Assembly: GCA_041163625.1 (NCBI GenBank)
Contig: JBEARB010000330.1
Coordinates: 10,194-74,193 of the forward strand
Direction: 5' to 3'
Length of the DNA: 64,000 nt
From: Pseudomonadota bacterium
GTDB lineage: Bacteria; Myxococcota_A; UBA9042
The notes under the pieces are model-generated. The model did not search any database, had not been told where the DNA came from, and saw only the letters and a program-made list of their open reading frames with translations. This document shows, one piece after another, positions 47,901 to 56,900 of this stretch (position 1 is the stretch's first letter; every line of letters begins with the position of its first letter). The position numbers were made by a program, and so were the translations under genes.

Positions 47901-50900
47901 GTTCGGCTCGAACGAGTCCTGGGCGAGGCACTCGCAACCGTCGCTGCCGAGACCGTTCAGGTCGTACCAGCCGGTGTTGCACTTGACGATCTTGCAGGTG
48001 CCGTTGACACACTCCGCCTCGGCATTGCCGTTGGCTGCGCAGGTCGAGTCGGCACCTTCATCGATGGTACCGTTGCAGTTCTCGTCCGCACCGTTGCAGA
48101 TCTCGATGCCGAGCGGGTTGACGGTCTTCGAGCTGTCGTTGCAGTCGCCCGCACCCTTCGGACAAACCGCCGGCTTGCCCACCGTGACCATCTTGTCGTC
48201 ACAGTAGCCGTCGCCGTCCTTATCGCACTCCTCGTCGAGGAACTGCAGACCACCCGAGACGTTGTAGCAGTACATCGGCGCGCTGCCGTTCGAGATGCAG
48301 ATCTCGGTACCGTTGTACGCCATGTTGTAGATGTCGGTGGCGGTGTAGAGCTTCATGCCGTCGTGGGCGCCGTTGCTCAGGTTGTAGCCGTAGATCCAGC
48401 GGCTGCTGCCGCTGCCGCGGTAGAGCTTGTCGCCGATCACCGCGAGACCGCCGTAGAGCGTGTTGCCGACCCAGTCGCCCGTGGCGGTGGACAGGTTGAA
48501 CGTACGCGTCACGTTGCCGTTGCCGCGGTCGAGCTCGTAGACGGTCTGCGCGTCGTGCCGCATCGCGTAGACCTTCTCCTTGGTCGCGAACACGCCATCC
48601 TCGTAGCTACCGATGTCGCGGGTCCAGAGCACCTGGTTGGTCGCGCCCTTCATCTTGCGGATGCCCTCGTAGTAGGTCGCGAGGTAGTAGTTGTCCTCGC
48701 TCGGGTCGCCAGCCACCTGGCGCACGTAGCGCTGGGAGGAGTTGAACGTACCGACCGACTGGGCCTGCGTGTTGAAGCGATAGATGGTGGTCGCGTACGA
48801 GCCGTTGTAGCCGGCGTGCCAGTACTCGCTTCGGTACGGGTGGAAGCCCGCGCCGTGGCTGTACGTGTTCATGCTGACCGTCTTCACCAGGTTCAGGTTG
48901 GCAGCAGCGTCCGGCAGCGAGTAGCAGCGCGTGTAGTTGTAGCCGTAGGTGGCAACGCACAGCTCCTTGGTCGACGTGTTGATGACCGAACTGTCGATGT
49001 AGGTCGACTGCGGGATGGAGTACATCACCACGCCGTCGTGCTTGCCGTCCGTGATGTTGTACCGGTAGGTGTAACGGTTGCGCGTGGTGCGGTAGAGCTT
49101 GTCGCCCACCGCCGTCAAGCCGCCGTACATCAGCTGGTCACCGTTGCTCGAGAAGTAGCCGCCGCCGGTCAGGGTGAAGTGCGGCTTCGCGGCGACGTCG
49201 TTGCCGTTGTTGCGGTCGAGTACGTAGACCTTGTTGTGCTCGTTGTAGTCGCGCATGGCGTAGACGTAGGTGCCGTCGGTCGTGACCGCCGACGCGTACG
49301 CACCACCGATGCTGCGGCTCCACACGGTCGCCGTGCTGTTGAACTTGCGACGGGTGACGGTGCCGTAGCCCCAGTTCGCCGAGTAGTAGTCCGAGTTGGT
49401 GAACTCGCCCTGCAGGCCCATCATCTCGGTCTGTCCCGAGTTGAAGGCGCCCTTGTAGCCGCCGCTCGAGTTGTAGCGCCAGATCGTCTGGCTGGACCAG
49501 TTCGTGTACCAGTGCTCCTGGAGGTTCGGGTGGAAGCCCGAGCCGTGGTAGGCCGTGTAGCTGCTCAGGTTCATCTGGCGCTTGTAGACCGAGCCGGTCA
49601 TCGGAGCGGAGTCGCAGTCGTTGTTCTTGCCGTCGCAGATCTCGGGCTTGCCCGGCGAGCACTCCGGACAGGTGTCGTCGCAGTCGCCGATGAGCGTCGT
49701 GGTGTAGAGATCCTTCGGCGCGCAGAGGCAGCGAGCACCCGAAGCGATGCCGTAGCCGTCCTGGTCACCGTCGAAGTAGTAGCTGGTGCAGCCCTGCGAG
49801 CCTTCCTCATCGACAACCTTGTCGCAGTTGTTGTCCTTGCCGTCGCAGACCTCGGTGTTCGCCGGGTTGACCACGGTGCTCGCGTCGTCGCAGTCGCCAC
49901 CACCCTTCGGGCAGACCTGCGGCGTGCCGATGGTCACCTTCTTGTCGGAGCAGTAGCCGTCCTTGTCGACGTCGCAACCCTCGTCGATGGTCGTCTCGCA
50001 GTTGTTGTCAATGTCGTCGCAGAACTCGGCCGCACCCGGGTTCACCGTCGAGAGCTTGTCGTTGCAGTCATCGCCCTTGGTGCAGGTCGTGCCGACGATC
50101 GGGATGCAGTACAGCTGGTTGTTGCTGCCGCTGCTGCCCGCGACGCAGTAGTCCGAGCCATCGAACGCGGAGGCGTAGATGCCGGTCGGCATCGTGAAGC
50201 GCACCTGGTCGTGCTCTCCGGTGGCGAGGTCGTAGCGGTACACCCAAGCGTTGGTCGCGCCGTAGAAGAGCTTGCCCTGCGCCACGGCCAGACCACCGTA
50301 TAGGTTGCCCGGACGCCCACCGGTCAGATTGAACGTCTTGATGAGCTTTCCGTCCTTCTTGTTCAGCTGGTAGACGGTGTCCTGGTTGTAGCGCATCGCG
50401 TACACGGCCGCATCGTCACCGGCCACGCCGCCCGGGTTCGAGCCGATGTTGTAGGTCCACAACACGTTGCTGGTCAGACCCGAGCGCTTGGTGATGCTCG
50501 CGTTGTTCCAGTTCGCCGAGTACCAGTTGTCGGCCGAGGTATCGCCCCACACCTGACGCATGTACTGCTGGGTGATGGTCGAGACACCGACGAGGTTCTT
50601 GTTGCGGTCGTAGCGGTAGATGTTCGAGTTGCCACTCGACCACTGCGGGAACCAGTACTCGTTGCGGAAGTGGTGGTAGCCGCCACCCTCGCCGTAGGTC
50701 GGGACGGTGTAGGCCTTGGCCGTGTAGGTCTGACCCGCGGCCGGAACCTTGTAGCAGTAGACCAGCGACGGCGTCGCGTTGTCGGCCAGGCAGAACTCGG
50801 TGCCGTTGAAGGCGACCGCGTCCGGGTTGGCGACGAGCGGAATCTTCACGCCGTCGTGCTCACCGGTGACCATGTCGTGGCGGTACACCCAGTTGTCGAG

Positions 50901-53900: not shown

Positions 53901-56900
53901 GGTGTAGCGGTAGACCTTGGTGGAGTACGCCGAGGTCCACTGCGGCATCCAGAACTCGTTGAGCTTGGCGTGGTAGCCACCACCGGTGCTCTGGGCGTTG
54001 ACGCCGATCGTCCGCGGCGTCAGCGCGCCGTCGGTGATCAGGGTGTCGCCGCAGTTCGGATCCGAGCTCGGCGACTTCGGGCAGGCGGTGTTCTTGATGA
54101 CCACCGAGCCGGCGTCGCAGTAGCCGTCACCGTCGACGTCGCACAGTTCGTCGGTCACGCCGTTGCAGTTGTTGTCCTTGCCGTCGCACAGCTCGGTCGC
54201 GAAGCCGTTGAAGGTCTTCGGATCGTTGTCGTCGCAATCGCCCGGGACCAGCGCGGTGTAGTCACCGTCCTCGGCACAGAGGCAGAGGAACGCCGCGCCG
54301 CCGAAACCGTCGCCGTCCTTGTCGACGTAGTAGTTGACGCAACCTTGGGCGCCGACGTCGTTGAGCGTGCCGTTGCAGTTGTCGTCGTCGACCGTGCCGC
54401 AGATCTCCTTGCCACCGGGCTTGACCGCGTTGGAGGAGTCGTTGCAGTCGCCGCCGCCGGCCGGACATGCCGCCGGGAAGGCGCAGCCACCGCCGTAGAT
54501 GTCGCAGCCGAGGATCTTCGTCGCGTTGGCGCAATCGGCGGTCCACTCGTTCGTGCAGCAGATGCCGTAGCCCGGCTTGCCGCAGACGCAGTCCTGGATC
54601 GCCTTGACCGAGCAGCCCGAGCCGCTGTGGGCCTGGCAGCAATCGCCGAAGGGCAGCGCAGCGTCGGCATCGCAGTAACCGTCGTTGTCGTCGTCGCAAC
54701 CCTCGTCGACCGCGGTGTTGCAGTTGTTGTCCTTGTTGTCGCAGATCTCGTCTGCGGCCGGGTTGACCGACGTCTGCTTGTCGTCGCAGTCGTCGCCGAC
54801 CGAACAAGCGTACTCTCCGAGCTTGTAGCAGTAGACCGAGGCGTCGTTGGCCGAGACGCAGAAGGTGTCGTCGTCGCGGTTGTGCACGACGTTGTACGGG
54901 GTGGTGCCGACCTGGAAGCTCACGCCGTCGTACTTGCCGGTGGCCAAATCGTAGCGGTAGGCCCACCGGTTGTCCGAGACGCGCCACAGCTTGTCGTTGC
55001 GGATGAACAGACCGCCGTAGATCGAGCCGGTGTACGTCGAGAGGTTGAAGGTCTTCTGCACCGAACCATTGGTCTTGTTGAGCACATAGACCTGCTGGTT
55101 GCTGTAGTACATCGTGTAGATGCTGCTACCGACGACCTGCACGCCGCCCATGTTGCTGGTCGGGTTGTACGTCCACTGGATGCTGCCCTGACCGTTCACA
55201 CGGCGGGTGCCCTCGTACCAGGTCGCGATGTACCAAGCGTCTTCGGCCGGGTCGCCGTCGTTCGCCATGATGTAGCGCTGGCCGATGTTGTGGCTGCCGA
55301 TGTAGTTCCGGGTGGCTCCGTCATATTTGTAGACGGTCGTCGTGCCGGAGGTCCAGTTCGGGTACCAGTACTGCTTGTGGAAGGCGTGGTAGCCACCGCC
55401 GTGGCTGTAGGTCTGCATGTTATAGACAGAGCCTACGAACTTCGGCAGCTGCTCCTTGCAGTTCGGCCCGGGCTGGGTGCCGGTCTTCGGGCACGCCACG
55501 GTGTCGCCGACAAGCATACCGGAGGCGCAGAAGCCGTCGGCGTCCTCGTCGCAGCCGCTGTCGACCTTGCCGCTGCAGCTGTTGTCCACGCCGTCGCAGA
55601 TCTCGGTCGCGTTCGGGTTGATGGTCGCGTCGGTGTCGTTGCAGTCGCCGGAGATCTTGGCCGAAGCGGCGTCACTCTGCACGCACTGGCAGATCTTGAC
55701 CGGGACCGCGCTGCCGTCACCGAAGAACGGCGCCGGGCTCGTGTTGCCGGCGAAGGTGACGGCGTCGACACGGATGCGACCGTTGCCGCCCGTACCGCCG
55801 TCGCCACCGTAGCCGTTGATCTTGTCGGACTGGCCGCCCGCACCACCCTTGGCCGAGACGCTGCCGTTGAGGGTCACCGTCGCGCCGCGCAGCCAGATCG
55901 CGCCGCCCGAGCCGCCACCGCCGGCACCGCCGTCGCGGTCGTTGACCACGTTGCCACCCCGGCCACCGTCGGCGCGAACCGCCGCGCCGGACGCGACCAC
56001 GATCTCTTGCGCGTCGATGCGCAGGGCACCGCCGCCGCCGCCGCCGCCGCCGCCCGACGAGTTGGCCGCGCTGCCGTAGCCGCCCGAACCACCGCCCGAG
56101 CCGCCGACCAGGGCCGTGAGCTGCAGGTTGCCGTAGGTGCTGCCGGCCTCACCGCCGGTGCCGCAGCTGTACGGCGAGGTCAGGCCGCTCTGGCCCGAGG
56201 TGCCGTAGCCACCGCCACCGCCGCCGGCACCGTAGCCGGAGTTGCAGCCACCGCCACCGCCGCCGCCGCCCTCGCCGAGCGAGCCGGCGTTGCCGTAGTA
56301 GGCTGGGGCACCGTTGCTGCCGCCCGGACCCGCCGCGCCGCCATTGGCGTTGCCGCAGCAGCCGGTCTGGTCCTGACCCTGCTTGCCGCTGAGGTCGAGC
56401 ACACCGTTGACGGTGACCTTGCCCTTGACCTTGATGACCAGCGGGCCGGAACCGGTGACGGTCACGGTGACGCCCGAGTTGATCGTGAAGCTCGAGAACT
56501 CGTAGGTGCCCGCGGCCAGCGTCGTGTTGGTCGTCGCGGTGTACGCGCCGTCCTTACCCGAACCGCACGAGGTGCACGCGGCGAGGTCGTCGGTCTGGCC
56601 CGACTCCTTGGCGCCGAATCCGTCCTTGTCCTCGTCGAGGTAGAAGTCGATGCAGTTCTTGGCGTCCTTCTCGTTGGTCAGACCGTTGCAGTTGTCGTCA
56701 CCGACGGTGTTGCAGTCCTCGGCCGCGCCGGGGTTGACGTTTTTGTCGGAGTCGTTGCAGTCCCCACCACCCATCGGGCAGCCGTCCGAGGGGGCTAGAT
56801 TGCCCTTGCAGTAGCCGTCACCGTCCTCGTCGTTGCAGAGCTCGTCGACGCCGCCGACACAGTTGTTGTCGGTGTTGTCGCCGCAAACCTCGGTCGCGCC

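Follow-up and report, generated by a model that had tools for sequence, protein, structure and literature searches.

The DNA considered here is a window of 64,000 nucleotides from a Pseudomonadota bacterium (GTDB lineage Bacteria; Myxococcota_A; UBA9042), taken from contig JBEARB010000330.1 of assembly GCA_041163625.1 (positions 10,194 to 74,193, forward strand); all coordinates below refer to this window. One giant gene on the minus strand (47211..64000, stop codon at 47211-47213) encodes nine copies of a domain of about 200 amino acids (aa). We hold with high confidence both that each of these units is a complete five-bladed beta-propeller, with four-stranded blades of about 40 aa, and that the units belong to the domain family defined below. 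The gene comprises more than 5,596 codons and its 5' end is open at the right edge of the window: upstream translation meets no in-frame stop up to 63998, so that the gene is truncated by the window, and the segment 63597-64000 (minus strand) is still open, which makes the listed start of the open reading frame (ORF) at 63596 (47211..63596, 5,461 aa) an artefact. In BLASTP, the first residue of the giant protein within the window aligns with residue 592 of an ortholog of 5,876 aa, P0011; by this alignment, roughly 590 N-terminal residues, including the lipoprotein signal peptide, would lie outside the window. Lipoprotein-type (lipobox) signal peptides open P0011, P0012, P0013, P0014, P0016 and P0018, an example being MRHQHNKRVIQLGLLAVLFGFAAC.

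Motif searching and alignment delimit nine units of 198-216 aa between 48255 and 55415, each scoring at least 202 bits against the hidden Markov model (HMM) of the family. An initial annotation, made from the sequence alone, had placed nine repeats of about 200 aa at 48275-55440, essentially the same interval, and had given no strand; the strand is minus. The copies share 26-42% pairwise identity, and all 72 ordered BLASTP comparisons among them give E-values of 4.7e-13 to 2e-52, which excludes chance similarity and bears out the homology of the nine repeats. Sixteen alignment columns are invariant over the nine copies, including G6, H10, W17, W82, Y101, G118 and two Cys. The motifs listed in the initial annotation (S/Y-H-G-x-G-Y/F-H ... 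E/Q-Y-W, YRYD, WY.A.W, VYAMR, FNL and LYR...YRYDL) are present, the departure being copy 4, the most divergent, in which the first motif has degenerated to SYGAAWH.

In the direction of transcription, copy 1 (54816..55415, ORF residues 2728-2927) is followed by a Cys-rich spacer with MopE-type units (54000..54815; 272 aa, 30 Cys). Copies 2 to 7 come next, at 53382..53999 (residues 3200-3405), 52749..53342 (3419-3616), 52065..52664 (3645-3844), 51408..52019 (3860-4063), 50742..51371 (4076-4285) and 50094..50702 (4299-4501), the last being the copy used for structure modelling. A second Cys-rich spacer with MopE-type units (49560..50093; 178 aa, 18 Cys) precedes copy 8 (48912..49559, residues 4680-4895) and copy 9 (48255..48869, residues 4910-5114), and all of these lie on the minus strand. 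Between successive copies, one to five MopE-type units had been proposed; this did not hold, as at six of the eight junctions the copies are joined by a linker of 12-28 aa that contains no Cys. MopE-type units between copies are confined to the two junctions after copy 1 and after copy 7, with more following copy 9, and the layout of the array is therefore 1 + 6 + 2. Per spacer, three such units were counted by eye and two were caught by a regular expression. Common insertions (SQGLY / STYSRLY, TTYL(S/A)G and RR(N/A)DKE) set copies 2 and 6 apart as a subtype, which P0011 and the TARA fragment P0001 both have at the corresponding positions.

Modelled in AlphaFold2 from the nine-copy alignment (a shallow multiple sequence alignment of 9 sequences), copy 7 comes out all-beta, with 19 strands and, in addition, an N-terminal bridge, a predicted local distance difference test score (pLDDT) of 93 and a predicted template modelling score (pTM) of 0.90. 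In this model the N-terminal strand is predicted to complete the last blade of the propeller unit. The model is a beta-propeller of the five-bladed class, with the five-bladed fold found in glutaminyl cyclases (QCs; 230-260 aa), and these enzymes ranked first, at TMq 0.74-0.76, when it was submitted to Foldseek, the QC matches as a whole spanning TMq 0.70-0.76. Profile comparisons point to the same architecture. Blade profiles drawn from an alignment of 147 instances match one another in register in hhalign (B3-B4 95%, B1-B4 89%, B1-B3 86%, B4-B5 75%), and the unit profile matches propeller blades in the PDB: Tako8 at 2e-11, 1l0q (YVTN S-layer) at 8e-8 and BamB, over two blades, at about 8e-6. 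For the copy 8-9 pair, the model (39 strands, pLDDT 80, pTM 0.59) fits two separate propellers with mutual orientation undefined. Some homologues, moreover, have a single unit as their only domain, between a signal peptide and a PEP-CTERM tail. Together, these homologues and the pair model indicate that each propeller unit folds autonomously. The initial annotation had suggested the blades of a propeller or, in the alternative, a beta-sandwich lectin-like fold. The former was right in fold and wrong in scale, since each copy of about 200 aa is a whole five-bladed propeller and not a blade; the latter is ruled out by the copy 7 model. The 200-aa unit as a single blade and the array as one large propeller were likewise rejected by the models and the single-unit homologues. 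In the giant proteins a Cys pair, C186 and C199 in model numbering, falls on adjacent strands of blade 5, where we propose a disulfide on the strength of the model, and E15 and R30 may form a cross-strand pair.

The initial annotation called the repeat unrecognised and a candidate new family. No Pfam or NCBIfam model covers the propeller unit in scans that included, for Pfam, the nine copies and eight homologues, so that the absence of a dedicated Pfam family stands. 'Unrecognised' must be qualified, in that 14 of these 17 members give partial matches to PQQ_2, copy 9 even passing the gathering score. The NCBIfam scan of the unit returned only BamB and ScyF matches, at 14-19 bits against curated cut-offs of 285-423. 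A new family it is in the sense of an uncurated one, lying within the long-established propeller fold and superfamily and not representing a new fold. The unit is a previously unmodelled extracellular domain family inside a well-known fold, and it falls outside the related families by their own tests.

A word-indexed homologue search had found nine relatives; when 1.84 billion representatives were searched exhaustively with an HMM, 79 proteins came out at E<1e-30, and local re-scoring gave 147 full-length instances in 86 representative proteins. W82 and G118 are present in 147 of the 147 instances. The signature of the family begins S-x-G-G-G-Y-x-P ... E-x-W-Y-P-x-W ... Y-R-Y ... G-x-F ... M-Q-x-W-x-D ... 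Y-Y-x-A-x-W ... W and continues ... G-V-x-x-D ... V-Y-A ... L-x-K-x-x-G ... L ... Y-G-G-L; in its short form, W(82) stands between Y-R-Y and V-Y-A, and G(118) between V-Y-A and Y-G-G-L. None of the family members found carries a functional name, all being unnamed or 'hypothetical', and a second word-indexed search with a 33-sequence family alignment gave five matches, one of them wrongly named ('ribosomal protein S11') and the others without a name or with a metaclust identifier that says nothing of function. One member of 258 aa (P0075) is called 'ribosomal protein S11' by its source (JGI), an evident misannotation.

The members fall into four groups: (a) MopE-rich giants of 4,500-6,500 aa with 2-9 propeller copies, among which P0011 also shows the 1 + 6 + 2 layout; (b) small PEP-CTERM proteins with a propeller; (c) proteins with an N-terminal TLDc domain, a propeller at about 284-485, Ig/PKD/HYR domains and a type IX secretion system (T9SS) sorting tail; and (d) a mixed set of multidomain proteins that carry fn3, Big_9, cadherin-like, Laminin_G_3, CBM96, P_proprotein, NHL or Dicty_CTDC domains. 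The order of TLDc (about 33-208) and then propeller (about 284-485) recurs in P0060, P0066, P0086, P0063, P0021 and P0064; after the propeller, four of these six carry a Bact_surface_Ig-like domain and some HYR or PKD, and four end in a T9SS sorting tail. TLDc also adjoins a propeller in the choanoflagellate Salpingoeca rosetta, whose hypothetical protein PTSG_13098 (EGD79834.1; P0019) has three propellers, four fn3 and two TLDc domains. Dictyostelium-type Cys repeats occur in P0036 and P0057, and P0022 combines three family propellers with Big_9 and cadherin-like domains. In a further locus (L013, contig_57438, 3317-7136), P0002 seems to be one piece of a MopE/propeller gene split into calls of 861, 261 and 133 aa, and an RHS/YD-shell protein gene lies nearby. 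This spread suggests a family distributed patchily over bacteria and protists.

A genome scan with the nine-copy segment found orthologues of the giant protein in seven loci of metagenome-assembled genomes (MAGs) at 30-78% identity; five of the seven are labelled Myxococcota, Myxococcales or MYXO and two carry less specific or different labels. Compared position by position with P0011, copies 1 to 9 are 44, 48, 54, 41, 52, 58, 62, 46 and 36% identical. For copies 1-8 the best match in P0011 is the copy at the same position, copy 9 (36%) being the exception, and because of this correspondence the array is older than the divergence of these lineages. L004, the nearest relative, has a one-to-one counterpart of each of the nine copies at 74-87% identity, with ratios of nonsynonymous to synonymous substitution rates (dN/dS) of 0.17-0.49 that show the copies to be under purifying selection, the synonymous rate being uncertain where the GC content at third codon positions (GC3) is 0.92.

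The remainder of the giant protein is dominated by Cys-rich repeats. Cu-binding_MopE (PF11617) matches 23 stretches in the N-terminal half (E 9.7e-187) and six in the C-terminal half (E 1.7e-50), 29 matched stretches in total, and the spacers carry the repeated 30-aa Cys/Asp-rich motif that the Pfam model describes. Among these repeats sits a C-type lectin domain (57312..57626, minus strand, residues 1991-2095; Lectin_C, E 1.6e-13). A Gly-rich stretch at 55752-56384 (minus strand, residues 2405-2615) gives a weak match to gliding_AgmC_N (E 9.5e-8, 31 bits against a cut-off of 275) and falls within some 300 aa for which P0011 has no counterpart. The C-terminal residues past copy 9, about 350 in number (47214-48254, minus strand), comprise one more MopE-type unit and an EGF-like Cys cluster, and the tail of the protein ends in Y-x-L-E-I-[ST]-N-G-[VI]-Y, an ending kept in all giant orthologues. 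No Pfam match was reported for this C-terminal region, and no MYXO-CTERM or other hydrophobic anchor is visible in it.

In base composition the giant gene stands out from its surroundings, with a GC of 63-66%, or 63-67% over 46000-64000, against 71-75% elsewhere in the window. Its frame has a GC3 of 0.92, as in the surrounding host genes, a first-position value (GC1) of 0.53 and a second-position value (GC2) of 0.48. Because GC3 is that of the host, the drop reflects an amino acid composition rich in Asn, Asp, Lys, Thr and Tyr and not foreign DNA, and horizontal acquisition, at which the lower GC had hinted, was rejected on this ground. The long plus-strand ORFs over the same DNA are antisense shadows.

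We read the giant protein as the lipid-anchored product of a myxobacterium, Cys-rich and built on MopE repeats over more than 5,600 aa, bearing a C-type lectin domain and displaying nine propellers in the order 1 + 6 + 2. The propellers would act as ligand-binding modules, with variable top-face loops recognizing a target outside the cell, which is probably a glycan or some other component of a cell surface, and nine individually conserved copies would endow the protein with multivalent, possibly multi-specific, adhesion. We consider multivalent binding of an extracellular ligand on a glycan or cell-surface target to be the best account of the array, and put it at slightly better than an even chance. 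That the domain is extracellular and occurs in adhesin-like contexts follows from the lipoprotein signals of the orthologues, from the PEP-CTERM and T9SS sorting signals of other members, and from the adhesin-type partner domains, which over the family include MopE, Lectin_C, PKD, Ig-like, fn3, cadherin-like, Big_9, HYR, Laminin_G_3, CBM96 and TLDc. Binding is favoured because copies that stand in tandem and are each conserved are a typical mark of binding modules, which acquire avidity or several specificities in this way. When the alignments are read against the strand map of copy 7, length variation among the copies falls mostly in the B-C and D-A loops, which would form the conventional top face and hence the putative binding face; one indel, of the RRNDKE type and found in copies 2, 6 and 8, is placed in a C-D loop of the bottom face. 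By topology, the conserved aromatic residues W21, W65 and Y135 would also belong to loops of the B-C/D-A type. From these patterns we infer that the units bind and do not catalyse, where the binding face lies and what kind of ligand it would take.

Several considerations weigh against multivalent binding. The conserved residues are assigned to the top face by a topological rule; the alignment behind the copy 7 model is shallow, as stated above; and synonymous rates at so high a GC3 are unreliable. The nearest structural neighbours of the unit, the glutaminyl cyclases, are enzymes. The fully conserved W82 and G118, and E15/R30, look structural and so mark no functional site. The genomic surroundings are equally mute: gatA (Amidase, E 1e-139) and a gatB-like ORF (44195-47127, plus strand), housekeeping genes convergent to the giant gene, and a phosphoglucomutase give no functional hint, and no conserved partner genes were found at the window gene or around the small homologues P0004, P0006 and P0002.

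Next in rank to multivalent binding comes a role for the propellers that is mainly architectural, as rigid spacers, as self-associating modules of a layer or matrix, or in homophilic cell-cell cohesion, and not in the recognition of a foreign ligand. Such a role might be sought in a giant lipoprotein made up largely of MopE spacers, yet each copy is kept by position between species that are only about 50% identical, and the differences among copies are found chiefly in surface loops, beyond what a spacer would require. Furthermore, the propeller occurs singly in small PEP-CTERM proteins and stands next to TLDc at the N-terminal, distal end of T9SS cargo. We therefore regard an architectural or self-associating role as unlikely, with perhaps one chance in several of being correct.

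Placed third, and improbable, is the proposal that the units are catalytic domains related to the plant/bacterial-type glutaminyl cyclases, or to some other propeller enzyme, and that the array is a multi-enzyme assembly. The shape of the unit speaks for it; the sequence does not. Glu_cyclase_2 (PF05096) reaches at best 16.7 bits, below its cut-off of 22.3, with E-values of 0.004-0.005 in two of the 17 members, and hhalign of QC against the unit gives a probability of 24.8% (E 7.9e-4) over blades 3-4 only. The QC sequences of 3mbr, 3nol and 2faw were taken from the PDB search output and aligned, and the positions that we take to form the active site of papaya QC (F22, Q24, E69, W83, W110, N155, W169 and K225) are all invariant columns in that alignment. 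Three of them, W110, N155 and W169, fall inside the low-confidence local hhalign match, where Gly, Tyr and a gap stand opposite them. The unit consensus shows no FGEG or FTQGL-type motif. A forced global alignment to QC slips by two blades, which indicates that the sequence similarity is generic to propeller blades, and structural alignments of QC with the unit show 11-16% sequence identity. Nine tandem copies with adhesin-type partner domains are, moreover, typical of binding modules and not of enzymes. By the tests run, the unit is QC-like in shape and not a member of the QC family. The last possibility, that the repeats are spurious and due to low-complexity periodicity or to a shadow ORF arising in GC-rich DNA, has the long antisense ORFs on the plus strand and a genome of more than 70% GC in its favour and next to no probability, being ruled out by the GC3, the orthologues in seven MAG loci, the dN/dS ratios, the confident model and HMM matches across databases.

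Multivalent binding by the array could be one instance of something broader. The family as a whole may be a phylogenetically patchy set of compact five-bladed adhesion or lectin modules, and the array in myxobacteria a device for recognizing prey, kin or matrix glycans multi-specifically; this reading spans the giant lipoproteins of Myxococcota, the PEP-CTERM proteins, the TLDc-containing T9SS cargo and the choanoflagellate protein PTSG_13098, and we offer it tentatively, at somewhat less than an even chance.

These results supply a fold, boundaries and a signature for about 2,400 previously unannotated residues in a giant surface protein of a myxobacterium, and define a domain family of about 86 representative clusters that neither Pfam nor NCBIfam contains. 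Secreted and adhesin-like architectures with this domain recur in several bacterial lineages and in at least one unicellular eukaryote. A family model would improve the annotation of large surface proteins and would point to testable binding modules for myxobacterial adhesion and for prey or kin recognition. Propellers were already familiar as extracellular binding modules, so the results challenge no concept and are not conceptually surprising.

Among known systems, the type I glutaminyl cyclases (PF05096; PDB 3mbr, 3nol, 3nok and 2faw/2iwa) are closest to the unit in shape without reaching the Pfam cut-off. To our knowledge, they are stand-alone enzymes and never form tandem arrays inside adhesin-like giants. 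Nearest by sequence is PQQ_2/BamB (PF13360; PDB 3q7m), with which the unit has the blade motif 'V-Y-x...D..tG' in common. The best of the partial PQQ_2 matches in the 17-member scan has an E-value of 1.6e-6, and copy 9, when cut slightly longer, reaches 7.5e-7. In cuts of 220 aa, copy 9 scores 29.5 bits (gathering score 27.6) over profile positions 157-231, about two blades, copy 7 scores 20.7 bits, copy 2 scores 13.8 bits and copy 1 gives no match. Matches span at most 95 of the 233 profile positions and copy 9 is the sole copy above the gathering score, which leaves the unit outside PQQ_2. BamB, furthermore, is an eight-bladed periplasmic lipoprotein of about 370 aa, whereas the unit packs five blades into about 200 aa, and the N-terminal signature of the family (SxGGGYxP...ExWYPxW) is not found in BamB. 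The YjiK / SdiA-regulated C-terminal domain (PDB 3qqz) is five-bladed and resembles the unit in shape at 11% identity; its Pfam family gave no match at E<=1 in the 17 members scanned. YVTN (1l0q, an archaeal surface-layer protein) has seven blades and NHL six, and their likeness to the unit is at the level of the blade only.

At the level of the whole protein, the MopE-repeat giants of myxobacteria such as AgmC (NCBIfam NF047640) are comparable, having in common with the protein described here a giant, Cys-rich, MopE-repeat architecture; the AgmC_N score of the present protein is far below the cut-off, and we know of no described link of propeller units to AgmC. The literature searched on AgmC, on MopE with Myxococcus and propeller, and on five-bladed propeller adhesins does not describe the domain, and BapP of Pseudoalteromonas tunicata (EAR30327) was the sole lead. 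This biofilm adhesin has at its N terminus an unassigned propeller with five blades (226 aa), after which come Big_9 and cadherin-like repeats (PMC12153261). The propeller of BapP occupies residues 21-246 or so, and may belong to the present family; P0022 likewise joins family propellers with Big_9 and cadherin-like domains. BapP has one propeller and no MopE repeats, in contrast to the nine propellers of the giant protein.

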